A stretch of 64,000 nucleotides of DNA from an uncultured Planctomycetales bacterium (lineage in GTDB: Bacteria > Omnitrophota > Gorgyraeia > Zapsychrales > JAHFFX01): the NCBI GenBank assembly GCA_964372915.1, contig CAYJRN010000004.1, positions 55,516 through 119,515 of the forward strand, in the 5' to 3' direction. Position 1 is the stretch's first letter, and every line of letters starts with the position of its first letter. Below are positions 12,829-42,020 of the stretch, in pieces. The notes under the pieces were generated by a model. The model was not told the DNA's origin. It saw nothing but the letters and a program-made list of their open reading frames with translations, and did not search any database. Both the position numbers and the translations under genes were made by a program.

Positions 12829-12936
12829 GAGAACAATCGTCGCCCCTGTTTTCCTTAAAACATATTCAGAGGAAACTGGGGCAGTCCTCACTTCCTCTGA
12901 AAATTTTTCAAAGGAAAGTGAGGGCGAGATACTGGC
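12829..12936. repeat. MITE-like repeat element C, copy 1 (forward)
   Basis: gagaacaatcgtcgcccctgttttccttaaaa…cctcacttcctctg…ggaaagtgagg…gatactggc is the reverse complement of 41919-42020 at ~90% identity; internal hairpin cctcacttcc/ggaaagtgagg. Confidence 0.7.
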
Positions 12937-12989
12937 TACCATAACTGTATTTAGAAAAGAAAAAGCCAGTAAAGAAGGAAGGCGGTAAC

Positions 12990-13991
12990 GTGGCGGAACT
13001 TGATCTCTTCTTCAAAATTTTCTTTTTTCTCTTTGGCGCGATTGTTGGGAGCTTTCTTAATGTCTGCATCGTGCGTCTTCCTCAAGGACAATCGGTGGTG
13101 GCGCCGCGGTCGCGCTGTGTCCACTGCGAGAAAACAATTCCTTGGCACGACAATATTCCGTTGATCAGTTATGTTCGGCTCGGCGGCAGATGCCGGTTTT
13201 GCAAAAAGAAAGTTTCGTTCCGTTATTTTTTGGTGGAATCGTTGACGGCCGCCGCGTTTGTTTTATTCTACAAAACTTTTGGGCTGACACCGTTGTTGTT
13301 GCCCTATCTTCTTTTGACGTGCGGCTTCATTGCTGCCACCTTCATTGATTTGGAGCACCGCATTATTCCCGATGAAATCACCATCGGAGGAATGTTCGCA
13401 GGTCTTGCCTTAAGTATATTCATTCCGCAGATGCAGGATACGGCGGTTTGGACGATTTCCAGCGGACGGGTCCTCATGCGGATTCTGGTGGCAATCTTTT
13501 TTGTGGCGTATTTTTTGAATTTTTTCATCAAAAAAGAACCGATCCTCAAAGAGGACAATGAGCTTTTTATTTTTATTGGGATTTTGTTTTTGGTTGATGT
13601 CTTTATAGGCCTGTCTATCCGTCCGGGAGATGTCCTTGATGGAATCAAAGCGTACATGATCAACCTGGATGCTTCACTGCTGGGGCTTTTGGTCGGCGGG
13701 GGTCTCATTTATTCGATGGGGATGCTGGGTGATTTTCTTTTTAAGAAGGAATCGATGGGCGGCGGGGACGTCAAACTTTTAGCCATGATCGGCGCGTTTT
13801 TAGGCTGGAAGTTGGCCGTGCTATCGTTTTTTATCGCTCCTGTCTTTGGGGCCTTAGTAGGTATTGTGATAAAAATCAAGACGAACGAAAGTGTCATCGC
13901 CTACGGGCCGTTCCTGTCGCTGGGGGCGCTCATGAGTATATTCTGGGGCGATGCAATTCTAGCTTGGATTTTGGCAGGTCATGGGTTATAG
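12990..13991 (+). CDS. Prepilin peptidase (A24 family leader peptidase / N-methyltransferase)
   Basis: N-terminal tetra-Cys motif CVHC…CRFC, polytopic membrane body, GGGDVKLLAMIGAFLGW catalytic region. Confidence 0.75.
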   Translation: MAELDLFFKIFFFLFGAIVGSFLNVCIVRLPQGQSVVAPRSRCVHCEKTIPWHDNIPLISYVRLGGRCRFCKKKVSFRYFLVESLTAAAFVLFYKTFGLTPLLLPYLLLTCGFIAATFIDLEHRIIPDEITIGGMFAGLALSIFIPQMQDTAVWTISSGRVLMRILVAIFFVAYFLNFFIKKEPILKEDNELFIFIGILFLVDVFIGLSIRPGDVLDGIKAYMINLDASLLGLLVGGGLIYSMGMLGDFLFKKESMGGGDVKLLAMIGAFLGWKLAVLSFFIAPVFGALVGIVIKIKTNESVIAYGPFLSLGALMSIFWGDAILAWILAGHGL

Positions 13992-14066
13992 TAACGTAAG
14001 AGTTTTCCTCTTCGGCAGCTTCTTTTTTCCACCTCCCAAGAAAATTTGAGTTAGCCGGCATATCTT

Positions 14067-14095
14067 TTGACAGGTTCTTCCTCTCGTGTTAAAAT
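14067..14095 (+). promoter_or_regulatory. Sigma70-like promoter for aroK (predicted leaderless transcript)
   Basis: TTGACA (14067-14072), 17-nt spacer, TAAAAT (14090-14095); predicted TSS ~14102-14104, coinciding with the aroK ATG at 14104. Confidence 0.45.
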
Positions 14096-14103
14096 CTGCC
14101 CAT

Positions 14104-14610
14104 ATGATAAAGAACATTGTTTTGATTGGATTTATGGGTGCTGGTAAGTCTTTGGTGTCCAATAGTTTAGCAAAAGAACTCAACCGAGAAAGAATTTCGA
14201 CGGATGAGTGGATCGAGAAAAAAGAAGGAAAGACCATTACCGAAATCTTTCGGGATTCCGGAGAAAGACACTTTCGCAGGCTTGAAGAAGACCTGGTCCG
14301 GGAGCTCAGCCATCGAGAGAACCTTATCATCGACTGCGGCGGCGGCGTTGCTGCCAATCAGAAAAACCTCGACTTTCTTAAGAACAATGGAATTCTTTTT
14401 TATCTCAAAATTTCTCCGGCCGTCGTCTATAAACGGGTGAAGAATAATCCCCATCGGCCATTATTGCAAGGGGCGGAGCCCCTCAAGAAAATCGAAGAAT
14501 TGCTCAAAGCCAGAAGTCTATTTTATGAACAGGCTGATTTTATTATTGATACCGACACGCACCGCATCGAAGACACGGTGCGCGAGGTTTTGAGGCTGTT
14601 GCCGAAATGA
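14104..14610 (+). CDS. aroK: Shikimate kinase
   Basis: MIKNIVLIGFMGAGKSLVS P-loop at the N-terminus; alternative GTG start at 14086. Confidence 0.85.
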   Translation: MIKNIVLIGFMGAGKSLVSNSLAKELNRERISTDEWIEKKEGKTITEIFRDSGERHFRRLEEDLVRELSHRENLIIDCGGGVAANQKNLDFLKNNGILFYLKISPAVVYKRVKNNPHRPLLQGAEPLKKIEELLKARSLFYEQADFIIDTDTHRIEDTVREVLRLLPK

Positions 14611-15734
14611 ACGAACGTGAATCCATTCTCATCTTAAACAGCATCCCGGGGTTGGGAAATGCTCGGGTCCGAGGACTGATCGATCGTTTTGGTTCCCCCG
14701 CAGGTGTCTTGGCCCAATCCCCCCGAGAACTGGCGCGAGAGAAGAGTATTTCTTTTGAACTCGCCCAGAGCATCGCGAGTTTTTCCAAGGATGGATATTT
14801 AGAAAGAGAATGTCGCTTTATCGAAAAAAATCGCGTTCGAGTGATGACCTTCCATGATGCCGATTATCCGTCGAGGTTGAAGGAAATCCCGGACGCTCCG
14901 GTTGTGCTTTTTGTAAAAGGGGAATTGCCGGAAGAGATCGATTTTTCAATTGCGGTCGTAGGCTCACGCCAGGCGTCCGTTTATGGATTGACCACGGCAC
15001 AGAAGTTCTCCTGTGACTTGGCCCAAATGGGGATGGTCGTTGTTTCGGGGCTGGCCAGAGGCATTGATACCGCGGCCCACCGCGGAGCGCTTAAAGCCCG
15101 CGGCAAGACAATCGCGGTTTTAGGCTGCGGTCTGGCGCATGTTTATCCGTCGGAAAATAAAAAGCTGTTTGAGGAAATCGCGGAATCAGGCGCGATCATT
15201 TCAGAGTTCTCTTCCCAAGTTCCGCCGGCGACTTTTAATTTCCCGCGGCGGAACAGAATCATCAGCGGTCTGTCCTTGGGCGTTATTGTTGTTGAGGCTT
15301 CTTTAAAAAGCGGGGCTCTGATCACGGCGGATTTTGCGCTGGAGCAGGGGCGCGAGGTCTTCGCGGTTCCCGGCAAGGTGGATAACCCGACGGCCCAGGG
15401 CACGCATAAGCTCATCAAGCAGGGAGCGAAGCTCGTCAGTAGCGTGGATGATGTTCTTGAAGAACTGAAAAATGATTTGAAAGAAGAGCTTCTCAAAAGA
15501 AAAAGCCTGCTTTTTCCAGCGCCCGTTCAAAGAAATTTCAAAACGCCCGGGGGCTTATCGGCTCAAGAGGTCACAGTTGTTGAGTGCGTTGCCGACGAGC
15601 CGGTCCACATCGACAATATTTCTTCAAAAAGCGGTTTGAAAGAGTCTCTGGTCGGCGCGATTTTGCTGCAGTTGGAATTAAAACGCATCGTAAAACAATT
15701 ACCCGGAAAGATGTTTGTAAGGAACAATATATGA
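14607..15734 (+). CDS. dprA: DNA processing protein DprA (Smf)
   Basis: 375 aa; Rossmann-like DprA core (…VVSGLARGIDTAAHRGALKA…) and the conserved smf-topA adjacency. Confidence 0.8.
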   Translation: MNERESILILNSIPGLGNARVRGLIDRFGSPAGVLAQSPRELAREKSISFELAQSIASFSKDGYLERECRFIEKNRVRVMTFHDADYPSRLKEIPDAPVVLFVKGELPEEIDFSIAVVGSRQASVYGLTTAQKFSCDLAQMGMVVVSGLARGIDTAAHRGALKARGKTIAVLGCGLAHVYPSENKKLFEEIAESGAIISEFSSQVPPATFNFPRRNRIISGLSLGVIVVEASLKSGALITADFALEQGREVFAVPGKVDNPTAQGTHKLIKQGAKLVSSVDDVLEELKNDLKEELLKRKSLLFPAPVQRNFKTPGGLSAQEVTVVECVADEPVHIDNISSKSGLKESLVGAILLQLELKRIVKQLPGKMFVRNNI

Positions 15735-17719
15735 TCCAATCGCTTGTCATCGTCGAGTCTCCCGCTAAGGTCAAGACCATCAACAAAATTCTCGGGAGTA
15801 AATATAAGGTCGTGTCTTCAATGGGCCACCTTATTGATTTGCCCAAATCGAAACTGGGTGTTGACATTGAAAATGATTTTAACCCGAAGCTGGTTGTCGT
15901 CAAAGCCAAACAGAAGATTCTGACCCAGCTTAAGAAAGACGCGCAATCTAAAAAAGAGATTTATATCGCCACCGATCCCGACCGCGAGGGGGAGGCCATC
16001 GGCTGGAACATCATCAGTCACATTGGCGATGGGAAAAAATACTACCGTGTGACCTTCCACGAAATCACCAAAGACGCCGTCTTGAAAGCGTTTGAAAACC
16101 CCAGAGAGTTTGATACCAAAAAGATCGACGCGCAGGTCGCGCGCCGGGTACTGGATCGCATCGTCGGCTACCAGATCAGCCCCTTACTCTGGAAGAAGGT
16201 TGGCTCCCGGCTCAGCGCCGGGCGCGTGCAGTCGGTGGCGCTGCGTTTGATCGTCGAACGCGAGCGCTCCATCAAAAGTTTTGTCCCGCAGGAATACTGG
16301 GAGATCGCCGTGGATCTTAAGAAAGACGGTTACGAAGACATCTTGGTCGCCGCGCTTGAAAAGATCGACGGACAGAGGGCGGAGCTAAAAAACAAAGAGT
16401 TGACGGAACGTATCGTCGAAGAAATCAAAAAACAGCAGTTCGCCGTTTCTCAGATTACCCAGCGCGAGGTCAAGCGTAACCCCTCGCCGCCTTTGATTAC
16501 CAGTACCATGCAGCAGGAGGCTTTCAATAAACTGGGCTTCAACGCGCAAAAGACCATGATGATCGCTCAGCAGCTTTACGAAGGGGTTGAGATCGGCTCA
16601 GATGAGACGACGGGTCTTATCACCTACATGAGAACCGACTCGGTGAACATTTCCAAAGAAGCCATGGAAAAGGTTCGCGCCTACATCAGCAAGACTTATG
16701 GTGAAAAATATCTTCCTGAAAAGCCCAACGTTTACAAATCGAGAAAGTCCGCGCAAGAAGCCCACGAGGCCATTCGTCCGACGGATGTGACGCGTAAGCC
16801 CCAGGACATCAAGAATTTTCTCGATGAGGATCAATACAAACTTTATGAACTTGTCTGGCGAAGGTTTGTCAGCTCTCAAATGGTACCGGCGGTTTATCAA
16901 TATAAAAAGATTGAGATCGTCGCTGGAGTGTTTACCTTTGGGACTTCCGGCTCCACACTTCTTTTTGATGGTTTTCTGGCGCTTTCCGCCGAGGATCGTG
17001 AACAGGAAGAGAAGCTTGATTTGACGCATTATGCAAAAGGAGACGCCTTGAGCCTTCAAGAGGTTCATCCTAGTCAGCATTTCACCAAACCGCCGGCCCG
17101 CTATTCGGAAGCAAGTTTGGTCAAAGCCCTTGAAGAGAACGGCATCGGCCGGCCGAGCACGTATGCCTCGATCATCTATACGCTGGTCTTAAGGAATTAT
17201 GTTATGCGTGAACGAGGTTATTTCATGGCAACGGAATTGGGAATGCTCATTTGCGATCTCTTAGTCGAATATTTTCCCAAAATCATGGACATTGGGTTCA
17301 CGGCGACGATGGAAGAAAATCTCGATCGCATTGAAGAGGGAGACCTCGAGTATCAGAAACTGCTGCACGAATTTTATCAGCCTTTTAAGGAAGAACTCGA
17401 TTATGCCATGGAAAACATCGTGAAGACCCAGAATTTTATCGACCGTACCTGTCCGCAATGCGGCAAAAAAATGACTATCAAATGGGGGCGCAAAGGGAAA
17501 TTTTTAAGCTGTTCCGGATTTCCCGAATGCAAATTCGCGGAACCTTTTCGTACCGGCGTCAAGTGCCCCGAACCTAATTGTCCCGGGGAGCTCGTCGAGC
17601 GACGCTCCAAGCGCGGCGCGGTTTTTTATGGGTGCAGCAATTATCCGGAGTGCAAGCACATCGAAAACAAATTGCCGGAAAAGCAAGCAAATATCGAGGC
17701 GGATGATCTGGACGTTTGA
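15731..17719 (+). CDS. topA: DNA topoisomerase I
   Basis: Start MIQSLVIVESPAKVKTINKILG (TOPRIM); C-terminal CPQCGKKM…CPEPNCPGE…CSNYPEC zinc ribbons; ATGA overlap with the dprA stop. Confidence 0.9.
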   Translation: MIQSLVIVESPAKVKTINKILGSKYKVVSSMGHLIDLPKSKLGVDIENDFNPKLVVVKAKQKILTQLKKDAQSKKEIYIATDPDREGEAIGWNIISHIGDGKKYYRVTFHEITKDAVLKAFENPREFDTKKIDAQVARRVLDRIVGYQISPLLWKKVGSRLSAGRVQSVALRLIVERERSIKSFVPQEYWEIAVDLKKDGYEDILVAALEKIDGQRAELKNKELTERIVEEIKKQQFAVSQITQREVKRNPSPPLITSTMQQEAFNKLGFNAQKTMMIAQQLYEGVEIGSDETTGLITYMRTDSVNISKEAMEKVRAYISKTYGEKYLPEKPNVYKSRKSAQEAHEAIRPTDVTRKPQDIKNFLDEDQYKLYELVWRRFVSSQMVPAVYQYKKIEIVAGVFTFGTSGSTLLFDGFLALSAEDREQEEKLDLTHYAKGDALSLQEVHPSQHFTKPPARYSEASLVKALEENGIGRPSTYASIIYTLVLRNYVMRERGYFMATELGMLICDLLVEYFPKIMDIGFTATMEENLDRIEEGDLEYQKLLHEFYQPFKEELDYAMENIVKTQNFIDRTCPQCGKKMTIKWGRKGKFLSCSGFPECKFAEPFRTGVKCPEPNCPGELVERRSKRGAVFYGCSNYPECKHIENKLPEKQANIEADDLDV

Positions 17720-17827
17720 ACTGATAATGAACCTATCCGATAACGAAAAACGAGACGCGGTAAAGTTTATTCAGGAAGGTAAACCTTTGTCTGAGAAATA
17801 TCGATTTTTTCAAGCGGTAAGGCACTT

Positions 17828-18688
17828 ATGAACCGATACCTTGACAAATTTCTCTCTTATCTTGAAATTGAGAAGAATTATTCTTCGCATACGCTTCTTA
17901 ACTACCGGCTCGACCTTGAGGATTTCTTGAAGTTTTCCACCGAGACGCCCATTGAGAGCGTGGATTACCTTTTGTTGAGAAAATATTTGGCTCACCTGCG
18001 CATCAAGGAGCCTCGGCCTCGGACGCTGGCTCGCAAACTTTCCTCCTTGAGGAGTTTTTTTAAATTCCTGCAACGGGAAAATCATGTGAAGGATAATCCG
18101 GCGGTGCTTTTGCAGACGCCGAAGCTCGATAAAAAGTTGCCGAAATTTTTGAGTGAAAACGAAATGGTTCAGCTCATCGAAGCGCCGCCGGTTGACAGCT
18201 TGAGCGGAAAACGCGACCGGGCGATTTTTGAGGTTCTCTATTCAACGGGAATACGCGTGAGTGAACTGGTGTCTTTGAACATCGACAGCGTGGATTTTAT
18301 CGGGAATATCGTCAAGGTGATGGGTAAGGGGAAGAAAGAACGATTGGCCCCGATCGGGGACAAGGCCCTGGAGGCGATTCAGGATTATTTGAACAATCGA
18401 AAAAATCCATCGACGGCGATTTTTTTGAACCAGAACGGCAAAAGGCTCACCACGCGCAGTATCTTGAATATCACCAACAAGTACATTGGGATTGCAAGCA
18501 TCAAAATCAAAGTTTCTCCACACGTTCTCCGTCACTCCTTTGCCACACACTTACTCAACCGCGGCGCGGACCTGCGTTCGGTCCAGGAACTCTTGGGACA
18601 CGTCAATCTTTCCACCACCCAGATCTATACCCACGTCACGACGGAACGCCTCAAAAATGTTTATGATAAAGCTCATCCAAGAGCATAG
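17828..18688 (+). CDS. Tyrosine site-specific recombinase XerC/XerD family
   Basis: …HVLRHSFATHLLNRGADLRSVQELLGHVNLSTTQIYTHV… catalytic R-H-R-Y region. Confidence 0.85.
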   Translation: MNRYLDKFLSYLEIEKNYSSHTLLNYRLDLEDFLKFSTETPIESVDYLLLRKYLAHLRIKEPRPRTLARKLSSLRSFFKFLQRENHVKDNPAVLLQTPKLDKKLPKFLSENEMVQLIEAPPVDSLSGKRDRAIFEVLYSTGIRVSELVSLNIDSVDFIGNIVKVMGKGKKERLAPIGDKALEAIQDYLNNRKNPSTAIFLNQNGKRLTTRSILNITNKYIGIASIKIKVSPHVLRHSFATHLLNRGADLRSVQELLGHVNLSTTQIYTHVTTERLKNVYDKAHPRA

Positions 18689-18701
18689 TTTTTCTTAAAA
18701 T

Positions 18702-19958
18702 ATGTTCATTTTATACGATATTATCTTCTTTTTGTACATGGTCTTTTATATTCCTTGTCTTTTGATGAGAGGCAAATGGCATTCCGGTTTGTGGCAGCGA
18801 TGGGGCTTTTTTTCATCGGAGATGAAAAAAAGCCTAAGGCAAAAGAAGAACATCTGGGTGCATGCGGTCAGCGTCGGAGAAGTTTTGTCGGTGGCTGGTT
18901 TACTTGAAGAGCTTGCCAAACGATATCCGAATGATCACCTGGTTCTTTCAGTGGTGACTCCAACCGGTTTTCATCTGGCTCAATCCAAGTTTGGCCCCAA
19001 GATGACCGTCATCTACGCGCCTTTGGATTTTAGCTGGGTTGTGAGGCGGTACATTAATCTCATCCGTCCGAAAATCTATCTTGTGGCCGAGACTGAGATC
19101 TGGCCTAACCTATGGTCGTTTCTGCATCAAGAGAAGATCCCCATCGTGCAGGTGAACGGTCGTATTTCGACGGGCGCGTTTCGGATTTATAGGCAAGTTC
19201 GATGGTTTATAAAACCTGTTTTAAGAGGAGTCAGCGCCTTTTGCGTGCAAAGTGAGGGTGACGCAAAAAGGATTATAGAGTTAGGGGCGGATGCCGACAA
19301 GATCCATGTGGTCGGAAATATCAAGTTCGATGACCTTCCGCGAGAAATCCCATCGGACTTAAAGGGGTTAGGGTTCAAGATTGCCGATGAACTTTTGATT
19401 GCCGGCAGCACGCACAAAGGGGAAGAAGATATCATGCTCGAGATCTTCAAGGCGATTTCTCCTGAGTTTAAAGATTTGCGTCTGGTCTTGGCCCCTCGCC
19501 ATCCGGAAAGAGCCGCGGAGGTTATCCGGTTGGTCGAACGCGCCGGTTTTGAAGCGGTGAGATTTTCCCAGATCAAAAATTCAAAGATCGAACGCCAGAG
19601 CATCGTGGTGGTGGACACGATTGGTCAGCTGCGTTCCCTTTACGCTTTGGGAACAATTATTTTTGTCGGCAAAAGTCTTACCGTTGGGGGAGGGCAGAAC
19701 ATCATTGAGCCGGGATTTTTTGCAAAACCCGTTCTGGTGGGGCCCTGGATGCAGAATTTTCAGGATGTTCTGGAAATCTTTCTTCAATATAAAGCCGTGG
19801 TGCAAGTTCAGGATAAAGAAGAATTGCGCGAAGAGATCGAAAGGTTACTTAAGAGTCCTCAACAGATGGAAGTCCTCGGCTCCCAGGCTAGGAGTGTCAT
19901 CGAAAAATTTAAAGGGGCTAGGGCCCGAACCTCTAACATTATTTCCCAATACATCTAA
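18702..19958 (+). CDS. waaA: 3-deoxy-D-manno-octulosonic acid (Kdo) transferase, GT30
   Basis: …RWGFF…IWVHAVSVGEVLSVAGLLEEL…ETEIWPNL… matches WaaA/KdtA throughout. Confidence 0.85.
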   Translation: MFILYDIIFFLYMVFYIPCLLMRGKWHSGLWQRWGFFSSEMKKSLRQKKNIWVHAVSVGEVLSVAGLLEELAKRYPNDHLVLSVVTPTGFHLAQSKFGPKMTVIYAPLDFSWVVRRYINLIRPKIYLVAETEIWPNLWSFLHQEKIPIVQVNGRISTGAFRIYRQVRWFIKPVLRGVSAFCVQSEGDAKRIIELGADADKIHVVGNIKFDDLPREIPSDLKGLGFKIADELLIAGSTHKGEEDIMLEIFKAISPEFKDLRLVLAPRHPERAAEVIRLVERAGFEAVRFSQIKNSKIERQSIVVVDTIGQLRSLYALGTIIFVGKSLTVGGGQNIIEPGFFAKPVLVGPWMQNFQDVLEIFLQYKAVVQVQDKEELREEIERLLKSPQQMEVLGSQARSVIEKFKGARARTSNIISQYI

Positions 19959-19964
19959 AAATCT

Positions 19965-21038
19965 ATGAAAGAATATTTATATCGTCTGGCCACGGATCAA
20001 AAAAATGGTTTTCCCGCCCGGTGTCTCAAGGCGTTGCTCTTGCCTCTGGCAGGCTGCTATGGGTGGGCTGTGAAATTGGTATATACCTTTCATCGTTGCG
20101 GGATTTTAAGAACGCACCAGCTCCCTAAGCCGGTCATCAGCATCGGCAACATCACTTTAGGGGGGGTAGGGAAGACTCCTTTGGTGTTGCTGGTGGCGGA
20201 ATATCTCTCGAACAAGAGGGCCCGACCGGTTATTCTCATCCGCGGGTATATGGATGAGCGCCCCATCACGCTTAAAGACCCTCGCACGATGAGCGACGAG
20301 GCTTTGACGCTCGAGGCGGCCTTGGAAAACGTGCCGGTCATGATCGGCCGCGACCGCCTCAAGAGCGCCCGAAGGGCGCTCAAAGAGCATGGGGTCGACG
20401 TTTTTATTTTGGACGATGGTTTTCAGCACTGGCGCTTGCATCGAAATCTCGATATCGTCGCTATCGACACGACCAATCCTTTCGGCAATGGGCAGCTCAT
20501 TCCCCGCGGGACCCTGCGGGAACCCGTCGACGCCTTGAAGCGGGCCAATCTTTTTGTTCTGACCAAAGTGGATGCGGGAAAAGATAATATTGAGAGAATC
20601 ATAAAAAAGATTCGTGAGCTTAATTCCGAGGCGCCCATCGTCCAGGCGGTACACGTTCCCGTTGGGCTGATGAGCATCACGCATCCCAAACGGCACTGGG
20701 ATCTTCAATTTTTAAGAGGAAAGAAGGTTTGTGGTTTCTGCGGGATTGGGGATCCTTCGTCGTTTAAGAATTCACTGCTGGCGTTGGGCGCAGAGGTGGT
20801 CGCGTTTATTCCGTTTATGGATCACCATTGTTATACCGAGAGCGATATCCACAAAATACTCGACGAAGGCCTTAAAAAGGGGGCCACGACATTGATCACG
20901 ACCGAAAAAGACAAAGTTAAACTGGAAGAATTTAAGCATCTTTTTAAGGACGACCAGGAACTGTTGTTTCTTAAGATCAAAATCGAAATCACCCAAGGTA
21001 AAGATGAATTCTTTCATCGAATCACTCATATACTATAG
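19965..21038 (+). CDS. lpxK: Tetraacyldisaccharide 4'-kinase
   Basis: PVISIGNITLGGVGKTPLVLLVAEYL Walker A region of LpxK. Confidence 0.85.
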   Translation: MKEYLYRLATDQKNGFPARCLKALLLPLAGCYGWAVKLVYTFHRCGILRTHQLPKPVISIGNITLGGVGKTPLVLLVAEYLSNKRARPVILIRGYMDERPITLKDPRTMSDEALTLEAALENVPVMIGRDRLKSARRALKEHGVDVFILDDGFQHWRLHRNLDIVAIDTTNPFGNGQLIPRGTLREPVDALKRANLFVLTKVDAGKDNIERIIKKIRELNSEAPIVQAVHVPVGLMSITHPKRHWDLQFLRGKKVCGFCGIGDPSSFKNSLLALGAEVVAFIPFMDHHCYTESDIHKILDEGLKKGATTLITTEKDKVKLEEFKHLFKDDQELLFLKIKIEITQGKDEFFHRITHIL

Positions 21039-30323: not shown

Positions 30324-31174
30324 GGACAAAAAGCCCCTCGATGATTTCAGCTCGTAATCCTTTAAAGACCAAGGCCACTGCCAAAACGCTGAAGGTCATC
30401 GGTGTCATCCCGGCCCGCTATGGTTCCACGCGTCTTGCGGCCAAGGTGCTGGCGGATCTAAACGGCAAACCGATGATCCAGCATGTGTACGAGCGCGCGG
30501 CCAAGAGTCAATATTTGGATGAACTTTTGATTGCCTGCGACCATGAACGCGTTTTGAACAAAGCTAAAGAGTTCGGCGCCCAAGCGGTTTTAACGTCGGT
30601 CCATCACGCCTCGGGCACGGAACGGATCGCGGAAGCGGTGAAATCCATCGACGCGGAAATCGTCATTAACATTCAGGGAGATGAGCCGCTCATTCATCAT
30701 TCGGTGATCGATGATTTGGCAAAAGCCCTTTTGGATGATTCCAATTGTCTTATGGCCACGGCCATCAAGCCCGTTGCCGTTGGGAGCAAGGAGTTGGACG
30801 ATCCCAACATCGTCAAGGTCGTCATTGACAAGAATCACAATGCTTTGTATTTTTCGAGGTCGTTGATTCCTTATGTACGTAAATCTAGCGAAGGTTTGAG
30901 GTACTTTAAACATTTGGGGATTTATGCCTACCGGAAAAAGTTCTTGATGGGCTTTAAGGATTTACCGAAATCGCGTTTGGAAGAAACGGAAAGTTTGGAA
31001 CAGTTGAGAGTTCTGGAAGCCGGATACAAAATTAAGACCGTTGAAACCAACATCGAGACGATCAGCGTCGATGTGGAGGAAGATATCAAGAAGGTCGAGG
31101 AGTATTTGAAAAAATCATCATCATCGGCCACAACTTACGGAGTCTCGCCGAAGGCGGACGAACGTAAGTTGTGA
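30320..31174 (+). CDS. kdsB: 3-deoxy-manno-octulosonate cytidylyltransferase (CMP-Kdo synthetase)
   Basis: VIGVIPARYGSTRLAAKVLADLNGKPMIQHVYERA; ~30 aa N-terminal extension; the 3' end overlaps the start of repeat E copy 1. Confidence 0.85.
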   Translation: MRTKSPSMISARNPLKTKATAKTLKVIGVIPARYGSTRLAAKVLADLNGKPMIQHVYERAAKSQYLDELLIACDHERVLNKAKEFGAQAVLTSVHHASGTERIAEAVKSIDAEIVINIQGDEPLIHHSVIDDLAKALLDDSNCLMATAIKPVAVGSKELDDPNIVKVVIDKNHNALYFSRSLIPYVRKSSEGLRYFKHLGIYAYRKKFLMGFKDLPKSRLEETESLEQLRVLEAGYKIKTVETNIETISVDVEEDIKKVEEYLKKSSSSATTYGVSPKADERKL

Positions 31175-31309
31175 GCCGAACTCGACCCAGCACTTATTTT
31201 GCGACACGGTGTTAAAGCCAAAATAAGTGCTGGGTTCAATTCCGTCACAGACTTACGTCGCTCCAAATGGGAGCTTCCGTAAGTCTGGACGTCATTGAAG
31301 GAACATTAA
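31150..31309 (+). repeat. Intergenic repeat element E, copy 1
   Basis: …gacgaacgtaagttg…cccagcacttattttg-cgacacggtgttaaag-ccaaaataagtgctggg (16-bp perfect stem) + GGTTCAATTCCG + cagacttacg…cgtaagtctg + gtcattgaagga + ATG of kdsA. Confidence 0.7.
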
Positions 31310-32131: not shown

Positions 32132-32143
32132 TTTTTAAAAGCC

Positions 32144-33100: not shown

Positions 33101-33152
33101 AGTTCATAATTATTTGTAGTTGCCATCACGATTTTTAAAATAGGAGGTTAAA

Positions 33153-33628: not shown

Positions 33629-33629
33629 C

Positions 33630-34157: not shown

Positions 34158-34987
34158 CGATCGTGTTGAACCGAGTGTTTTTCATTATGCTTGTTTTTTT
34201 TAGCGGTGTTGTCTTTTTACACGCTGAAGACAGTCCGCAGCAATTCCAGGGATTCACCCTCGATGGGTATACGGATGGGGGGCACAAGGCCTGGGACGTG
34301 AAAGGCGATACCGCCGATGTCAGCGGTAATACCATCGAACTCACCAACCCCGATGCGAATTCCTATGGGAAGGATAATGTCAATATCAAGGCGAAAACCG
34401 GATCCATCGATAAAGAAAGCGGCCAGATGCATTTAGAGAAGGATGTGGTCATCACCACTCAAAGCGGAGCCAGGATGACGACGAATTCCCTTGATTGGGA
34501 ACGCGAAAAAGATTTGGTCACTACCAACGATAGAGTGAAGATCACGCGCGACGATATTATCGCCGAGGCGATGGGCGCGATAGCCCATCCCAATCTGCAG
34601 ACGGGCCAGATGAACAAGGACGTCACTGTTGAGCTGAGACCCAAACCCGATAAGGACGGAAATCCACAGTTGCCCGTGACCATCACTTGCGACGGGCCGC
34701 TGGAGATCGATCAATTGAAACAACAGGCGACCTTTAACAAGAACGTGGTCGCGGTCCAGGAAGGCCGGGAACTCAAGGCAGACAAAGTTGAGGTCTTCTT
34801 CGATCAGACCACCAAGCAGATTAAACAGATGATCTGCACCGGCCACGTCGCAATCACGCAGGGCGGCAACACGACTTATTCCGAATCCGCCGTCTACACC
34901 GCAGGAGACCAGAAGATGATTTTGTCGGGAAGACCGAAGCTCATTTTACAGACGCAAGGAGGCCAATTTGCATCTCCTGGAAACTAA
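34130..34987 (+). CDS. LPS transport periplasmic protein, LptC/LptA (OstA-like) family
   Basis: N-terminal hydrophobic anchor/signal, then an OstA-like beta-jellyroll region; located between kdsC and lptB as in kdsD-kdsC-lptC-lptA-lptB operons; start uncertain (GTG 34154 or 34163 likely). Confidence 0.6.
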   Translation: MAEPFREKVTIVLNRVFFIMLVFFSGVVFLHAEDSPQQFQGFTLDGYTDGGHKAWDVKGDTADVSGNTIELTNPDANSYGKDNVNIKAKTGSIDKESGQMHLEKDVVITTQSGARMTTNSLDWEREKDLVTTNDRVKITRDDIIAEAMGAIAHPNLQTGQMNKDVTVELRPKPDKDGNPQLPVTITCDGPLEIDQLKQQATFNKNVVAVQEGRELKADKVEVFFDQTTKQIKQMICTGHVAITQGGNTTYSESAVYTAGDQKMILSGRPKLILQTQGGQFASPGN

Positions 34988-35690
34988 AGGACTCGTTAAG
35001 ACCTACGGCGGCCGCCGGGTTGTCGACGGCTTAAGTATCTCGGTGGGTCGTTCCGAAATTGTGGGACTCTTGGGGCCCAATGGCGCCGGTAAGACGACGA
35101 CTTTTTATATGGCCGTGGGGATTGTGAAGCCCGAGGAAGGAAATATATTTTTTGATGAGGAAGATATCACCAAGAAACCCATCCATGAACGTTGCCGTCT
35201 GGGCATGGGATATCTCGCGCAGGAACCATCAATCTTCCGAAAATTGACCGTTGAGGAAAACATCCTGGCGATCCTGGAGACTTTGAACATCTCTCCGCGC
35301 GAACGCCAGTACCGCCTGCGCTCCCTTTTGGACGAATTGAACATTGCGCATCTGGCTAAGGCCAAGGCCTACACGCTTTCCGGCGGGGAACGAAGACGTC
35401 TTGAAATTACGCGGGCGTTAGTGACCAATCCGTCATTTTTGCTGTTGGACGAACCGTTTTCGGGGATTGATCCGATCGTCGTGGCCGAGGCGCAGGAAAT
35501 CATCAGAGACTTAAAAGGCCGGGGCTTGGGAATTCTTCTCACGGATCATAACGTTCGCGAGACGCTTTCGATCACCGACCGGGCGTATTTGATCGCCGAG
35601 GGCCGCGTTCTCATCTCCGGCTCGGCGCAGGATCTTATCAATGATCCAAAGGCCAGGAAGATTTATTTGGGGGAGAAGTTTACGATGTGA
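34968..35690 (+). CDS. lptB: LPS export ABC transporter ATP-binding protein
   Basis: GLLGPNGAGKTTTF Walker A, LSGGERRRLEI signature, LLLDEPFSGIDP Walker B. Confidence 0.88.
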   Translation: MHLLETKGLVKTYGGRRVVDGLSISVGRSEIVGLLGPNGAGKTTTFYMAVGIVKPEEGNIFFDEEDITKKPIHERCRLGMGYLAQEPSIFRKLTVEENILAILETLNISPRERQYRLRSLLDELNIAHLAKAKAYTLSGGERRRLEITRALVTNPSFLLLDEPFSGIDPIVVAEAQEIIRDLKGRGLGILLTDHNVRETLSITDRAYLIAEGRVLISGSAQDLINDPKARKIYLGEKFTM

Positions 35691-35878
35691 GTTGAGCGCA
35701 CAACTTGCGGAGCGTTTTAGGCGACGTAAGTTGACAGCGCGAAACTCACCCAGCACTTATTTTGCGATACCAGATTTAAGCCAAAATAGGTGCTGGGTAA
35801 ATTCGCACTTATAAGTTACGTCGTCCGCCAAAGGCGGACTCCGTAACTTATGTGCTCATTTAAGGAGTTAACAGCAAC
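35691..35878 (+). repeat. Intergenic repeat element E, copy 2
   Basis: …ggcgacgtaagttgacagcgcgaaactcacccagcacttattttgcgatacc…ccaaaataggtgctggg + gcacttataagttacg…cgtaacttatgtgc hairpin with inner gtccgcc/ggcggac + tcatttaaggag + ATG of tig. Confidence 0.7.
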
Positions 35879-36793
35879 ATGAAACTGGAAGTCAAGAAAG
35901 TCGACGCGACAAAAAGAGAATTAAAATTTGAGATCCCCAAAGACAGGGTTTCACAAAAGCTGGAAGAAGTTTACGTCGAAATCGCCAAGGTTGCCAAGGT
36001 CAGGGGTTTCCGTCCCGGGAAGGCCCCGCGCAATGTCATTGAGGGGGAACACAGCCGTCTGGCGCAGGAAGAGATGCTCAAAAAAATCATCCCCGAGGTT
36101 TATCAGGAGGGAATCGATAAAGAAAAGATCGTGCCCATGGACATGCCGGATATTCACGACGTGTCCTACAAGGACGGCAAGGTTACCTTTAACGCGACTT
36201 TGGATATCCGGCCTGAGGTCAAGGTCAAGAATTACAAAGGCGTTCAGCTCAAGAGAAAGACCTCTCAGGTGACCGAGGAAGAAATCAACAAGACCCTTGA
36301 ATTTTTTAAAAGAGGCCAGGGCGAGAAGGAAGTCAATATCGACGATCAGTTCGCGCGCGGACTCGGCTATCCAAACTTGGAGGATTTTAAGAATTTTTTA
36401 AAACGCCAGATGGAAATGGACAAGGATCGCCAAAACCGGATGGATGTCGAGAATCAGATTCTTGAGGCGCTTTTAAAAGAATCGTCGCTGGTCGTTCCCG
36501 CGTCGGTCGTCCAAAGACAGCTGGAGCATCTTGTTGGGGAAAACATCCGGCACTTAAAGTCTCGTCCCGCCGTTGGCGGAGCAGGCCGAATGCCGGAAGA
36601 GGAGATTAAAAAGAAAGAAGACGAGCTGCGCAAGGAACTAAAGTCTGTGGCGGAAAGAGATGTGAAAATTTTTCTCATCATGGAGAAGATTGCCGAGCTT
36701 GAGAACATTTCTGTGGGGCCCAACGAAAACATGCCTCATAAGGTTTTGGAATTTTTAATGAAAAACGCTAATTGGGAGGAAACGAAATCATGA
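35879..36793 (+). CDS. tig: Trigger factor, short form lacking the central PPIase domain
   Basis: N-terminal ribosome-binding domain with the GFRPGKAP signature, joined directly to the C-terminal chaperone arm (…[21 protein letters not shown]…); 304 aa versus ~430 aa typical. Confidence 0.75.
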
Positions 36794-37398
36794 GCGAAAA
36801 GAATCAAGTTCTGGTTCCTATGGTCATCGAGAAAACCGGTCACGCCGAAAGGGCCTATGATATTTATTCGCGGCTTCTTAAGGATAGAATTATCTTCATC
36901 GGGACGGGGATTGACGATACCGTCGCGAACCTTGTGATCGCGCAAATGCTGTTCTTACAGCTGGAGGATTCCGGCAAAGACATTCATTTGTACATCAATT
37001 CCCCCGGGGGGTCAGTGACGGCGGGCCTGGCGATTTACGACACCATGCAATTCGTCAAACCCGATGTCTGCACGTATTGCGTTGGGCAGGCAGCCAGCAT
37101 GGGGGCGGTTCTGCTTACGGCCGGGACCAAGGGAAAACGTTATGCCCTTCCTTTTTCACGGATGATGATCCACCAGCCGTGGGGCGGGATGCAGGGGACG
37201 GCCAGCGACATTTCAATCCATGCCAAAGAAATCCTGCGCGTGAGGGAAGAATTGAACCAGATCCTTTCCAAACATACCGGCCAAAATCTTCAAAGGATCC
37301 AAACTGATACCGACCGGGATTTTTTTATGAATTCCAAAGAGTCCAAGGATTATGGATTGGTGGATGAAGTCATTGTCAGTTTAAAGAAAGATAAGTGA
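36790..37398 (+). CDS. clpP: ATP-dependent Clp protease proteolytic subunit
   Basis: …[24 protein letters not shown]…[19 protein letters not shown]…AASMGAVLL…MIHQPWGG… Ser-His-Asp triad context. Confidence 0.9.
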
Positions 37399-37424
37399 GG
37401 GGTCGGGGAATTCCCCGACCCCTC
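37397..37424 (+). terminator. Perfect palindromic hairpin overlapping the clpP stop (no T-run)
   Basis: gagggg-tcgggg-aatt-ccccga-cccctc; followed by a GC-rich segment with partial similarity to repeat A/B (…cctgagcgg…gtcgaagga…). Confidence 0.4.
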
Positions 37425-37489
37425 ATCCTGAGCGGAGCCCCGAGGCTACGCCGAGGGGCGGAGTCGAAGGATCAGAAAGGATTGAATGT

Positions 37490-38632
37490 ATGAAACGAAA
37501 TCTGCTGCTCACCCCGGGTCCCACGCAAATTCCAGATTCGGTCCGCGAAATTCTAGGCCGGCCGATCATTCATCACCGCACGCCGCAATTCCAGGCGGCT
37601 TTAAAAGAAGCGGCGGAAGGGCTCAAGGATATTTTTCAGACCCGTAATGATGTCCTCATTCTCACTTCCTCGGGCACCGGCGGGATGGAAGCGGCTGTCT
37701 GTAATCTTCTCTCCAAGGGCGACAAGGCGATTTCTGTTGAGGGCGGTAAGTTCGGCGAGCGCTGGAGCGAGCTGTCCCGAGCCTATGGCGTCGATATCCG
37801 TGTGATCAAGGTCAAGTGGGGGCAGACGGTTGACCCGAATGAAATCAAAAAGCTTTTGGACGCCCAAAAAGATATTAAAGCGGTATTCGTCACGCTCGTT
37901 GAAACCTCGACGGGAGTGACCAGCGATATCAAGGCCATCGGGGACATGGTTAAGAAAACCCCCGCGGTCTTGGTGGTGGATGCCATCAGCGGGCTGGGCG
38001 CAACGGAACTCAAAGCTGACGAATGGGGCGTGGATGTGGTTGTGTCAGGCTCACAAAAAGGATTGATGCTGCCGCCGGGTTTGGCATTCGTGAGCGTTTC
38101 TTCCAAAGCCTGGGCCTTAATCGAAAGATCCACGAATCCCAAATATTATTTCGATCTTAAAGCGGCCAAGAGAGCGGCAGAAAAAGCCGATACGCCTTAC
38201 ACGCCGGCCATCAATATCATTTTGGCTTTAAATGAATCCATTCGTCTTATCAGGGAAGCGGGGATAGACAAATTGTTGGCCCATTATGCGCGCCTGGCCA
38301 AGGCCACCCGCGCGGCGGCCAAGGCTTTGAACCTCACGCTGTTCGCGGATGAGAAATGCGTTTCCAACGTCGTGACGGCAATCAATTTGCCGGCGGGGAT
38401 CGATGGTGAGAAACTCGTGAAAGTCATGCGCGACACCTATGGCATCAGTGTTGCCGGCGGGCAAGATACCTTGAAAGGCAAAATTGTCCGCTTCTCACAG
38501 ATGGGATGCCTGGATGAGTATGATATCTTAACGGGAATTTCCTGCTTTGAAAAAGTTTTAAACGAGATGGGGTATAAGTTCACTTTGGGCGCTGGAGTCG
38601 CCGCGGCCCAGAAAGTTCTCAATACTCAATAA
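37490..38632 (+). CDS. serC: Class V aminotransferase, probable phosphoserine aminotransferase (AGXT-like SerC)
   Basis: MKRNLLLTPGPTQIPDSV… class V fold-type I N-terminus; immediately upstream of serA. Confidence 0.6.
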   Translation: MKRNLLLTPGPTQIPDSVREILGRPIIHHRTPQFQAALKEAAEGLKDIFQTRNDVLILTSSGTGGMEAAVCNLLSKGDKAISVEGGKFGERWSELSRAYGVDIRVIKVKWGQTVDPNEIKKLLDAQKDIKAVFVTLVETSTGVTSDIKAIGDMVKKTPAVLVVDAISGLGATELKADEWGVDVVVSGSQKGLMLPPGLAFVSVSSKAWALIERSTNPKYYFDLKAAKRAAEKADTPYTPAINIILALNESIRLIREAGIDKLLAHYARLAKATRAAAKALNLTLFADEKCVSNVVTAINLPAGIDGEKLVKVMRDTYGISVAGGQDTLKGKIVRFSQMGCLDEYDILTGISCFEKVLNEMGYKFTLGAGVAAAQKVLNTQ

Positions 38633-38636
38633 GCCA

Positions 38637-40232
38637 TTGGAGCGAACGATGAAGATCTTGATTACCGATAAGCTGGCGCAGGAGGGCGTGGACATCCTCA
38701 AAGCCGTTAAAGAATTTACGGTGGACTGCAAGTTCGGCATAAAATCCGATGAGCTTAAAGCCATCATCAAGGATTACGATGCCTTGATCATCCGCAGCGA
38801 GACGAATCTCACGGCCGATATCATAGAAAAGGCTGACCGCCTGAAAGTGATCGGCCGCGCGGGGGTGGGACTGGACAATGTGGACTTGAAGGCCGCCACT
38901 CGAAAAGGGATCGTGGTCATGAATACGCCGGCCGGCAACACGACCTCGACGGCGGAACACACCATGAGTATGATCCTTGCCTTATCGCGCAATATCCCTC
39001 AGGCCTGCGCGTCCTTGAAGTCGGGAAAATGGGAACGTTCCAAGTTTACCGGCGTTGAGCTCTACGGCAAGACGCTGGGCGTCATTGGCCTGGGACGTAT
39101 TGGTTCAACGGTTGCCCGGATGGCTAAAGGTTTTGGCATGAAGATCGTTGCCTGTGATCCATTTCTTTCAAATGAAGTAGCTGCCAAGATGGGGGTCGAA
39201 ATGGCGGAATTGGAATCGCTTCTTAAGACCTCCGACTACATCACGATTCATATTCCTAAAGGTACGGACAGCCGGAGCCTGATTTCAAGACCGGAATTCG
39301 CCCTTATGAAAAAAGGTGTGCGCATCATCAATTGCGCGCGCGGCGGCATCATCGATGAGACCGCCTTGGCTGAGGCGCTTGCCAACAAAACGATTGCGGG
39401 TTGCGCCTTGGATGTTTTTGAAAAAGAACCCCCCAGCGCCGGTCATCCGCTCTTAAAGTTCGACCATTGCGTGGCCACGCCGCATTTGGGAGCAGCTACT
39501 TCCGAGGCGCAGCTCAACGTGGCCATCGAGATCGCCGAGTGCGCGCGCAATGCTTTATTAGGGAAGGGCATCGTGAATGCCGCCAACTTTCCCTCGGTCA
39601 GTGCTGAGGCTTACAAAGTGCTTGAACCCTACATCGATTTGGCGGAACGCATGGGACGCTTTTCCGGACAACTCATTAACGGTCCCATTAAGGAAATCAA
39701 AATTACCTATAGCGGGACCGTTACCAATTACAAAGTGGCTCCCGTGACGATGGCGATCGTCTTCGGAGTTTTGTCGCCTATCTTAGGGGAGACGATTAAT
39801 CTTGTGAACGCCGTCGATTACGCCCGCGAGCGGGGCATCAACGTCCAAGAAATCCAGTCGACCAAAGAAGAGGAATTTGTGAATCTTGTGAGCCTGGAAG
39901 TCGTTTCTGACCACGACACGTTTTCTTTATGGGGGACGCTGTCCGCCAATAATAAACCGCGCATTGTCCGCGTCAACAAAATTTACGTGGAGGCGACTCC
40001 CGACGGATACATGCTGTTCATCAACAATAATGATAAGCCCGGCATCGTTGGTGCCGTCGGAACTATTCTTGCCCAGGCGAACATCAATATCGGCAGCATC
40101 AGCTTTGGCCGTGAGGTGCAAGGCGGACAGGTTGTGAGCGTGGTCAATGTTGATAGTGAAGTTCCCAATGGGGTGATCGAGAAGCTGCGTAAGACCAAAG
40201 ATATTCTTTTTGTCAAATTGATCGAGGTCTAA
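38637..40232 (+). CDS. serA: D-3-phosphoglycerate dehydrogenase with C-terminal ACT domain
   Basis: 531 aa; GLGRIGSTVA NAD motif, 2-hydroxyacid dehydrogenase catalytic region, ASB and ACT C-terminus. Confidence 0.88.
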   Translation: MERTMKILITDKLAQEGVDILKAVKEFTVDCKFGIKSDELKAIIKDYDALIIRSETNLTADIIEKADRLKVIGRAGVGLDNVDLKAATRKGIVVMNTPAGNTTSTAEHTMSMILALSRNIPQACASLKSGKWERSKFTGVELYGKTLGVIGLGRIGSTVARMAKGFGMKIVACDPFLSNEVAAKMGVEMAELESLLKTSDYITIHIPKGTDSRSLISRPEFALMKKGVRIINCARGGIIDETALAEALANKTIAGCALDVFEKEPPSAGHPLLKFDHCVATPHLGAATSEAQLNVAIEIAECARNALLGKGIVNAANFPSVSAEAYKVLEPYIDLAERMGRFSGQLINGPIKEIKITYSGTVTNYKVAPVTMAIVFGVLSPILGETINLVNAVDYARERGINVQEIQSTKEEEFVNLVSLEVVSDHDTFSLWGTLSANNKPRIVRVNKIYVEATPDGYMLFINNNDKPGIVGAVGTILAQANINIGSISFGREVQGGQVVSVVNVDSEVPNGVIEKLRKTKDILFVKLIEV

Positions 40233-40235
40233 CCT

Positions 40236-40949
40236 ATGCCTTTTTTTGTGGCCGGGGCCGCCGACGGGACGAATCCTTTGGCGCTTTCAACGCTGGTCAT
40301 CTTTATTCTGATTCTTTTATTTTTACGGCGTAATCGTCAAGAAGTCTTGATGACCGGTATCATCTTTATCGGTACGATTCTTTTTACTAATTTTTTGGCC
40401 AAGAATTATTTTTTTGACGAGCTCTTTGATACGGATGTATTTTATTATATCGCGCAATGGACATATCTTTTTTTGGGTTTGGGCGCCTTGGCCGCCGGGG
40501 CGGTGAATCTTTATGACTGGTGGAAGATCAAAACGACCGGCGAGATAAAAGATAGTTTTTTAAAACGTTCGCCGATTTCCACCGTTCAAGCAAAAAAGGT
40601 TTCTTTCCGCTGGTTTTTTGTGGCGACTTTTTCTTTTTTCACGGCACTCTTTTTGTCCTTGATTCAATCGGTCTATCCGTCTCCGCCGTACTTGCAGGCT
40701 TTGGTCGATGTTTATCTCATCCATAAGCTTAATCAAGAACTGGCGTTTTATCTTTTGATTTACAGCTTCATGAGTGTTCTTCCGCTGGTTTTAGCGTTGG
40801 TTTTTGTCCTGATCGGATTTTTTTCTCTGCGATTCACGAATTTTTTAGGCTTTCGGGCCAGGACCGTTAAGATCGCCGCATCAGCTTTTTTTGGAGCTTG
40901 GGGACTAGGCCTACTCTATCAACTCAACAAATCCATTTTTGGAGGATAA
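40236..40949 (+). CDS. Hypothetical cysteine-free polytopic membrane protein (~6 TM)
   Basis: 237 aa, strongly hydrophobic segments, no recognisable motif. Confidence 0.45.
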   Translation: MPFFVAGAADGTNPLALSTLVIFILILLFLRRNRQEVLMTGIIFIGTILFTNFLAKNYFFDELFDTDVFYYIAQWTYLFLGLGALAAGAVNLYDWWKIKTTGEIKDSFLKRSPISTVQAKKVSFRWFFVATFSFFTALFLSLIQSVYPSPPYLQALVDVYLIHKLNQELAFYLLIYSFMSVLPLVLALVFVLIGFFSLRFTNFLGFRARTVKIAASAFFGAWGLGLLYQLNKSIFGG

Positions 40950-40961
40950 CAGAAGGATCAT

Positions 40962-41879
40962 ATGAAAAAAATTTTCTTTGTTCTTTTTGTAGTGTTTCTG
41001 CTCTCAGTTTCTCTTTTAAATGCGCAAGAGAAGGGGAAGGTTGCCCCTAAGGAGACCTTAACGAAAACGGCCGCTAAACCGTCTTTAGACCTTTGGGTGA
41101 TTGTCCCTTCGGATTGTCGCACCTGTCAGTTGGGACCCGTTGTGGACTCCTTGAAATCTTTTTTTCCGGATATTCAACCTCAACTCATAAGTTCGGCGGA
41201 ACCCTCAACGGTGGAAATGATTAAGCAGTTCAAAATTACGATGCTGCCGGCGTATCTCTTTTCCAAGTCTCTGGACAAAGAGGCGAACTTTGAGAAATTT
41301 CAACAAGCCGTTGAGCCCATCGCAGACAAGTACTACATGAAGCCCTCGCTTTCAGGCGTTTCTTACTTTTTGAATCGTCCGTTTAAGGCCGGCAGGCTTG
41401 ACTTGTTCGTCTTCATTTCCGCTAAAGAAAGTTTGCCCATCTTGAAGATGGTGGAAGGGATCGTGGAGCAAAAGCAAAGTTCCAAGAAGTTCACGCTCCA
41501 TTTGATTGGCAGAGAGAATCCGCAAAAAAAAGGAGAATTTCTTTCTCCCATGGGCAATCGGGAAGTGGAGGAGGGAAAACTGTTCGCCTGCATTGATGCT
41601 TATGCGCCGAAAGCCGCGGGGCAGTATCTGACCTGCCGTATGGCCGATAGCAACAGTCTTTTTTGGGAAGATTGTTTTCAGTCTAAGAGCGCTTCAAAAG
41701 ATAAAATCAAGGCATGCGTGAAGGGTGAAGAGGGCAAGCGGCTATACTTAGAAAAAATCAAGATGTCTCAGGAGTGGCAGATCTTGTATGGGCCGCTGTT
41801 TGCCTTGAACAACGTTGAGATTTTCGGTGTCACGTCCCAGTCCACGATCAACGATGTTTTGAACGCCATTGGACAGTAG
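40962..41879 (+). CDS. Hypothetical secreted protein with N-terminal CxxC (thioredoxin/DsbA-like?)
   Basis: Signal peptide MKKIFFVLFVVFLLSVSLLNAQE; …VIVPSDCRTCQLGP… then …ITMLPAYLF… reminiscent of a thioredoxin fold; additional Cys pairs C-terminally. Confidence 0.4.
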   Translation: MKKIFFVLFVVFLLSVSLLNAQEKGKVAPKETLTKTAAKPSLDLWVIVPSDCRTCQLGPVVDSLKSFFPDIQPQLISSAEPSTVEMIKQFKITMLPAYLFSKSLDKEANFEKFQQAVEPIADKYYMKPSLSGVSYFLNRPFKAGRLDLFVFISAKESLPILKMVEGIVEQKQSSKKFTLHLIGRENPQKKGEFLSPMGNREVEEGKLFACIDAYAPKAAGQYLTCRMADSNSLFWEDCFQSKSASKDKIKACVKGEEGKRLYLEKIKMSQEWQILYGPLFALNNVEIFGVTSQSTINDVLNAIGQ

Positions 41880-41918
41880 TTTCTACTGACCTTTTCCTTT
41901 CCAAAGACATTAAGGAAG

Positions 41919-42020
41919 GCCAGTATCTCGTCCTCACTTCCTCTGTATTTAAGGAAAGTGAGGACTGTCCCAGTTTCCTCTGGATCAATTTTAAGGAAAA
42001 CAGGGACGATGATTGTTCTC
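41919..42020. repeat. MITE-like repeat element C, copy 2 (inverted relative to copy 1)
   Basis: Reverse complement matches 12829-12936; flanked by inverted repeats gacgatgattgttctc / gaggaacaatcgtc. Confidence 0.7.

Follow-up and report, generated by a model that had tools for sequence, protein, structure and literature searches.

A TA-flanked row of four hairpins at aroE and purA of an Omnitrophota bacterium, a likely miniature transposable element

The 64,000-nucleotide stretch of contig CAYJRN010000004.1 analysed here (hereafter the window) carries, at the end of aroE ahead of pilD and again ahead of purA, two opposed copies of a short sequence that an earlier note had taken for a miniature inverted-repeat transposable element (MITE), and the question raised by this locus is whether the sequence has moved and by what kind of machinery it would do so. 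The diverged copies occupy unrelated sites in opposite orientation, the purA site is empty in near-identical strains, and the aroE copy is an insertion relative to the ancestral junction. We consider it likely that the element belongs with the bacterial MITEs, as a non-autonomous DNA transposon 169-175 bp long, AT-rich, geneless and inserting at TA. The part of the earlier proposal that stands is thus the small non-autonomous mobile element, which the empty purA site, the ancestral aroE/pilD junction and the TA flanks support; the anatomy that came with it does not, the supposed terminal inverted repeat (TIR) being a hairpin and the proposed length too short.

The two copies and the sites they occupy

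The inverted pair is real and far beyond chance, as had been claimed. A repeat search of the window returned the inverted arms 12792-12893 / 41956-42057 (102 nt, 88% identity) and 12916-12971 / 41884-41939, which gapped blastn merges into 181 aligned positions at 82% identity (E 1.6e-40), and a two-sequence nhmmer profile scores the copies at 196 and 191 bits. The segments first noticed, 12829-12936 and 41919-42020, had suggested a unit of ~105 bp; they fall within a real unit of 169-175 nt, ~70 nt longer. Copy 1, located by the repeat alignment, lies on the + strand at 12795-12969 (175 nt), in the 3' end of aroE and upstream of pilD, and its boundaries were set from the flanking TA dinucleotides and by comparison with copy 2, for which an empty site is known. 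Copy 2 lies on the - strand at 41886-42054 (169 nt), between the stop codon of a gene encoding a 305-aa protein and the ribosome-binding site of purA. The two share about 80% identity overall and 88% across the first 102 nt, the longest identical run between them being the first 20 nt of the left end, and their G+C content is 39-41% versus 49.6% for the window. No third copy was found by blastn or nhmmer in the 64 kb.

The purA site was compared with Logan assemblies of the ENA runs ERR4904390-93 and ERR3478686-87, which represent essentially the same organism (99.96-100% nucleotide identity). In four of them (ERR4904393, ERR3478687, ERR3478686 and ERR4904392) the element is missing at purA: their contigs L001, L012, L013 and L014 lack 41886-42054, are 99.97-100% identical to the window elsewhere, and read GGACAATAGTTTTTAAAAGAGGG at the empty site. 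The empty allele runs from the 305-aa gene directly into purA, as …GGACAATAGTTTT[TA]AAAGAGGGTTATCCATTCATG, and the filled allele of the window reads …GGACAGTAGTTTC[TA]CTGACC…(169 nt)…CGTCAA[TA]AAAGAGGG…, with …TTTC just ahead of the first TA. The single TA of the empty allele, GGACAATAGTTTT[TA]AAAGAGGG, thereby corresponds to one TA on each side of copy 2, at 41884-41885 by the right (H4) end and at 42055-42056 by the left (H1) end, H1 to H4 being the hairpins described below. More distant relatives have spacers of 39 nt (L005) and 144 nt (L002) at purA, neither of them similar to the element. Copy 2 is an insertion polymorphism with exact boundaries.

At the other site, aroE ends inside hairpin H1, so that the element supplies its final 10 codons (IDDCSSKKDF) and its stop codon, in agreement with the earlier observation that the outer arm of copy 1 lies within the last aroE codons. 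In a relative, GCA_023247725.1 (L015), aroE and pilD overlap (ATGA) with no spacer, and aroE ends …KMRETLTLAKKGR-stop, …AKKGR-stop. The window still holds a displaced former aroE 3' end (…K-E-G-R-R-stop) at 12972-12988 on the + strand, which retains the pilD ribosome-binding site GAAGGAAGG. Deleting 12795-12971 in silico, that is copy 1 with one TA, joins 12794 to 12972 and restores …KMWKSLKEGRR-stop, with the TAA 1 nt ahead of the pilD GTG (12990) and GAAGGAAGG kept as ribosome-binding site. The restored aroE product has 287 aa; its homologues have 287-292 aa and end 5-11 residues past the KM[RW]xSL motif. Sequence comparison read in this way makes copy 1 an insertion into the ancestral aroE/pilD junction, through which the last five residues of the protein, KEGRR, have given way to the ten element-encoded residues IDDCSSKKDF, and 163 nt of RNA predicted to be strongly folded have come to stand between aroE and pilD. 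Comparison with relatives that lack the element, which the earlier note had asked for, accordingly gave a purA site empty in near-identical strains and a spacer-free aroE/pilD junction in a relative. Copy 1 is present in every sampled population, whose sister strains have this aroE copy and not the one at purA.

A left TA at 12793-12794, read from the sequence, precedes copy 1, and a right TA at 12970-12971, the inferred duplicated target, follows it and also closes the stem of hairpin H4. All four flanks of the two copies are therefore TA, a dinucleotide that makes up 3.5% of those in the window, and the search for a target-site duplication, also proposed at the outset, yielded one TA in the empty purA site against a TA on either side of both copies.

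Hairpin architecture and a possible role in RNA

Each copy is a row of four separate, consecutive hairpins that fold independently. H1, with a 13-bp stem, forms the left end of the element (12797-12841 on the + strand in copy 1, 42008-42052 in copy 2). H2 follows (12842-12882, +; 41967-42007) and differs between copies by one compensatory pair, C-G to U-A. H3 (12884-12925, +; 41930-41965) is apparently flipped end-for-end between the copies, and H4 (12930-12971, +; 41884-41925), whose stem takes in the flanking TA, differs by a compensatory pair and by a change of G-C to G-U. The minimum free energies (MFE) are -68.3 and -64.1 kcal/mol for the element forward strand and -71.0 and -62.8 for the reverse strand. 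The single end-to-end hairpin of the classic MITE fold was looked for and rejected, MFE and consensus structures both giving four local hairpins; the H2-H3 core is ~70% self-complementary (blastn, nhmmer), so the element has a loose overall dyad symmetry, yet it folds locally. The central hairpin cctcacttcc…ggaaagtgagg described earlier is real and is H3. The flanking inverted repeat gacgattgttcctc / gagaacaatcgtc, presented at that time as the TIR, is something else: its two arms pair with each other in H1 (12797-12841), a hairpin that stands at the left end alone.

Could these stems be kept for the sake of an RNA? If the element were a duplicated functional RNA with a structure of its own, be it a leader or spacer acting in cis or the gene of a small RNA, selection on the RNA would keep the hairpins, and the fold speaks for this: z-scores run from -4.9 to -8.9, RNAalifold retains 47 of 47 pairs in the two copies, in three cases by substitution of both partners, and alignment columns differ between copies in 10.6% of paired versus 34.9% of unpaired positions (Fisher p 1e-4), the stems thus being more conserved than the loops. 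However, the copies are opposed within operons that run uniformly on the + strand, which makes their transcripts complementary and not alike; sister strains have no element at purA, and relatives have it at neither locus; and the G-U wobble changes disagree, that of H1 fitting the minus strand and that of H4 the plus strand. Rfam searches with gathering and with permissive thresholds returned noise and no family for the element, and no promoter or terminator consensus was found inside it on either strand. We regard this explanation as very improbable. Nor is a protein apparent: stop codons are few and several frames are open in both copies, and a protein search with the single forward frame open in both gave no match, the other open frames not having been searched.

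For H3, the reverse-complemented alignment between the copies scores 18, against 12 for the direct one, and once one copy is flipped, 15 contiguous bases match in the 5' arm and 13 in the 3' arm; an exact match of the stems is obtained in this flipped alignment only. This apparent end-for-end inversion suggests a hairpin flip by template switching. The stems might be taken for the functional units, the element being then a hairpin-array module and not a conventional MITE with TIRs and a DDE transposase, either mobile through recognition of single strands or hairpins or retained in operons for some role of the folded RNA, for example in stabilising or processing the transcript or in insulating genes from one another. 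We find this version unlikely; were it true, the flip of H3 would indicate that hairpins still serve as templates for rearrangement.

Termini, targets and the mode of mobility

Bacterial MITEs are described as shorter than 200 bp, non-coding and A+T-rich, with TA termini and target-site duplications, stable folded transcripts and in-frame fusion to host open reading frames (PMC2229807). The element matches this published description: it is small and has no protein of its own, its filled and empty sites speak for mobility, TA stands at its termini, and it is A+T-rich with a stable fold. A transposase encoded elsewhere in the genome would move it in trans, by cut-and-paste. By analogy, the responsible enzyme is probably of the IS630/Tc1-mariner type, because the target is TA and the termini carry a weak YTGRC… inverted repeat. 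The IS630/Tc1-mariner transposases are TA-targeting DDE enzymes. The insertions appear to be tolerated, there being no terminator or promoter consensus on either strand, few stop codons and an intact ribosome-binding site downstream: both copies lie within operons, where one gene ends and before the ribosome-binding site of its successor begins, and both insertions are upstream of that site.

The closest parallels lie among elements of this class. RUP (repeat unit of pneumococcus) is a non-coding unit of 107 bp with short TIRs, inserts at TA and is thought to be mobilised in trans, for which IS630-Spn1 has been proposed (PMC2229807); our element resembles it in being small, non-coding and TA-inserting and in the proposed trans mobilisation. 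RUP differs in having more than 100 copies and TIRs that match a known insertion sequence, whereas here two copies are seen, the TIR is weak and no partner insertion sequence is known; the present element is also 60% longer, and its hairpins are four and separate. With the Correia/NEMIS elements of Neisseria and the ERIC/IRU elements of enterobacteria it has in common the 100-200 bp size class, TA termini with TA duplication, strongly folded transcripts and location inside operons (PMC2229807), and those elements are co-transcribed with neighbouring genes (PMC2229807). They nevertheless form one long hairpin in which the 5' and 3' ends pair, in contrast to the four local hairpins found here and to ends that do not pair with each other, and in sequence they are not similar to it. 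YPAL/RU-2 of Yersinia (168 bp) and RPE of Rickettsia are of similar size, have filled and empty sites between close strains, and are translated with the upstream gene as is the aroE tail (PMC2229807); unlike our element, YPAL is without TA termini and RPEs insert in frame inside genes and do not replace a C-terminus, and again no sequence similarity exists. The Caulobacter/Brucella intergenic repeat (CIR) is alike in that its 5' and 3' sections fold independently and that it has TA termini and no clear TIR (PMC2229807). It differs by an exposed GANTC methylation motif, none having been noted here, and by a mobility that is unproven, whereas here the empty site supports mobility.

Several observations weigh against the MITE reading, namely the quality of the termini, the ambiguity of the TA duplication, a mismatched base beside copy 2, the small number of copies and the lack of a transposase gene in the 64 kb window. 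The real termini are TTGACG… / …GYCAG, also written TTGACGATTG… / …CTGRC and TTGACGATTGTTCC… / …GGAAAAGGTCAG; with the TA counted as target, the ends to be compared are 5'-TTGACGATTGTTCCTCTAAA… versus, in reverse complement, 5'-CTGGCTTTTTCTTTTCTAAA / CTGACCTTTTCCTTTCCAAA. They match as inverted repeats at 12/20 and 11/20 bases (shuffle p ~0.001 and ~0.005), and the first six bases, TTGACG versus CTGRC[TC], at 3-4/6. The TIR deduced from these alignments is thus weak and imperfect. Moreover, a 2-bp duplication of TA looks no different from the insertion, behind a TA, of an element whose own last bases are TA.

This last point leads to a different machinery, since single-stranded DNA mobility by a tyrosine HUH transposase, of an element derived from IS200/IS605 palindrome-associated sequences or similar to REP/RAYT and recognised through H1 and H4, would insert it 3' of a short target …TYTTA with …CAGTA at its end and without a true duplication. 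Duplicated TA and target TA plus terminal TA predict the same empty purA site, which fits both models equally. Strong hairpins directly at both ends with a weak conventional TIR, the absence of an unambiguous duplication, and stems conserved over diverged loops (the paired and unpaired differences given above) would likewise suit an HUH element, as would the five bases to the left of the element, TCTTA and TTTTA at the only two sites, and the CAGTA with which both copies end. In the IS200/IS605 family, on the other hand, the left and right hairpins are alike on the same strand, and here the stems of H1 (GACGATTGTTC) and H4 (TACTGGCY), compared directly, have nothing in common and are alike only when one is inverted. 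The hairpins also abut the element ends and do not lie 10-20 nt inside them as in IS608, the element is much longer than REP or REPIN sequences, and no Y1 transposase is present in the window or near the copies. In our estimate HUH-mediated mobility is improbable.

The mismatched base is 41883, immediately outside the TA at the right (H4) end of copy 2, which is C in the filled and T in the empty allele; the reading of a target-site duplication consequently needs a recombination tract to account for it. Compared with the sister strain represented by L001, the window has only six substitutions across 17.4 kb, at 41876, 42131, 42144, 42158 and 42164 and at the junction base 41883, all in the tract 41876-42164 around copy 2 and within ~120 bp of flanking sequence; the rest of the shared segment (~17 kb) is identical. 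Those in purA, three synonymous and one K24Q, look like ordinary divergence and not damage. On sequence grounds, the cluster is the signature of a short recombination tract that bears the insertion allele. Homologous recombination over at least ~290 bp from a lineage ~5% diverged would have swapped the filled and empty purA alleles, bringing either the filled allele into this genome or the empty allele into its sisters, and a tract exchanged between diverged lineages would explain the differing base 41883. Copy 2 is probably not a fresh jump within this clone.

It may also be observed that the substitutions 41876 A>G and 41883 T>C both lengthen the complementarity, over 41874-41888, between the region of the host stop codon and the element end. 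The resulting junction hairpin, CAGTAG-TTT-CTACTG followed by ACCTTTTCCT, is terminator-like and weak, and is the only such signal at the copy 2 junction; this complementarity could be a coincidence or the product of a junction-specific process.

Since recombination has acted at purA, as the six-substitution cluster shows, one may ask whether mobility is needed at all: a second copy could have arisen by ectopic recombination or gene conversion, the empty purA allele then being a secondary deletion, and that only two copies are known agrees with this. Such a deletion, however, must occur exactly between 2-bp repeats and recreate a spacer like that of the relatives, both loci are clean insertions relative to relatives and both at TA, and the flanks of the two copies have no homology to drive an ectopic exchange. 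The non-mobile account strikes us as highly doubtful, and the MITE-type transposon remains the preferred reading.

The documented copies are nonetheless two only, both in the window. The exact pattern GGAAACTGGGRCAGTCCTCAC had no match in 185,579 GTDB species genomes, not even to the window itself, which means that the host genome is outside the GTDB-representative collection. Back-translated peptide patterns of the element open frame gave none in JGI metagenomes, and the archaeal match that they gave among GTDB genomes was rejected as spurious (48% identity over 25 aa, nhmmer E 0.3). The 18-mer terminus TTGACGATTGTTCCTCTA had 15 matches in JGI metagenomes and 3 in IMG/VR, all of them chance matches with no element past the 18-mer, and a second IMG/VR pattern had 0. 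A search of the translated frame against proteins, for other copies called as genes, found no candidates, blastn of the element against plasmids and phages found no match, and the exact aroE, purA and right-end open reading frame sequences of the window found no record. No further copy was thus found in GTDB species representatives, JGI metagenomes, IMG/VR, plasmids or phages, the host genome itself being outside the searched collections, and the element is a new sequence family known so far only from this species.

The assemblies of the organism itself add a hint. All Logan contigs are interrupted within copy 1, and always at one of two points: one contig (L006, from ERR4904392) ends at 12846, and four (L007-L010, from ERR4904391, ERR4904392, ERR4904393 and ERR3478686) start at 12905. 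Shared break points of this kind are how a k=31 graph behaves if 30-mers of the element recur at other loci or in variants, and the breaks hint indirectly at additional copies elsewhere or at structural variants of H2/H3 in the population. Logan contigs break also just past the tRNA cluster, near position 1064.

Host, gene order and significance

The purA and aroE homologues assign the window to the candidate phylum Omnitrophota, the nearest database genomes having ~80% (purA) and 61-64% (aroE) protein identity. Nearly all genes of the window (1-64000) are on the + strand and their content is housekeeping: tRNAs, PTS, ilvC, a leuA-like gene, aroE, pilD, aroK, dprA, topA, a xerC/D-like gene and a lipopolysaccharide core and Kdo cluster, together with tig, clpP, serA, purA, dxr, rseP, proS, nusA, infB, trpS, ruvB and queA. 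Near the right end of this otherwise housekeeping window, at 61859-62463 (+), lies a pair formed by a small RelE-like toxin and an HTH/MqsA-like antitoxin.

An inversion of the ~29 kb between the copies had been envisaged, and there is no sign of it. Gene order is collinear with relatives at both ends, the order of the pfkB-family kinase gene, the Kdo/Lpt genes, tig, clpP, serA and purA being the same as in L002 and that of aroE-pilD-aroK-dprA-topA the same as in L015. We reject the inversion on this collinearity, on the longest identical run of 20 nt between the copies and on the sisters that have no purA copy; it would reverse ~25 co-oriented housekeeping genes.

Other repeats are found in the same stretch. 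A second, unrelated palindromic family occupies 31162-31258 and 35725-35820 (+), each copy being one long hairpin of ~100 nt with a 17-bp perfect core, ACCCAGCACTTATTTTG / CAAAATAAGTGCTGGGT, and z from -6 to -9. They take up the spacers between kdsB and kdsA (135 nt) and between lptB and tig (188 nt), and because the corresponding spacers of a relative have only 9 and 72 nt, they too are probably insertions, to judge from spacer lengths. Logan contig L001 has its first base at 35817, on the very margin of the copy at 35725-35820. A 44-nt direct repeat containing a hairpin (513-556 and 646-689, +; 84% identity) has its first copy immediately after tRNA-Lys and its second upstream of tRNA-Leu, and a 203-nt spacer holds, at 62530-62645, two adjacent hairpins of the X-TTCC…GGAA-X' style, like H2-H4, whose nhmmer E of 0.3-1.8 is not significant.

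Mobile elements of the Omnitrophota are almost undescribed, and our literature search found no paper connecting this candidate phylum with miniature inverted-repeat elements. The kind of element is ordinary and leaves the understanding of how MITEs work unchanged; to be built of four hairpins is somewhat unusual, and the element is clearly polymorphic between strains. Contigs of the organism in metagenome assemblies made with short k-mers break at it, as they do at tRNA genes and other repeats. For this bacterium, the finding is one of a small TA-inserting element inside tightly packed housekeeping operons, which gives shikimate dehydrogenase a different C-terminus and uncouples aroE from pilD, and which varies between strains otherwise identical over tens of kilobases, so that it could serve as a strain marker.

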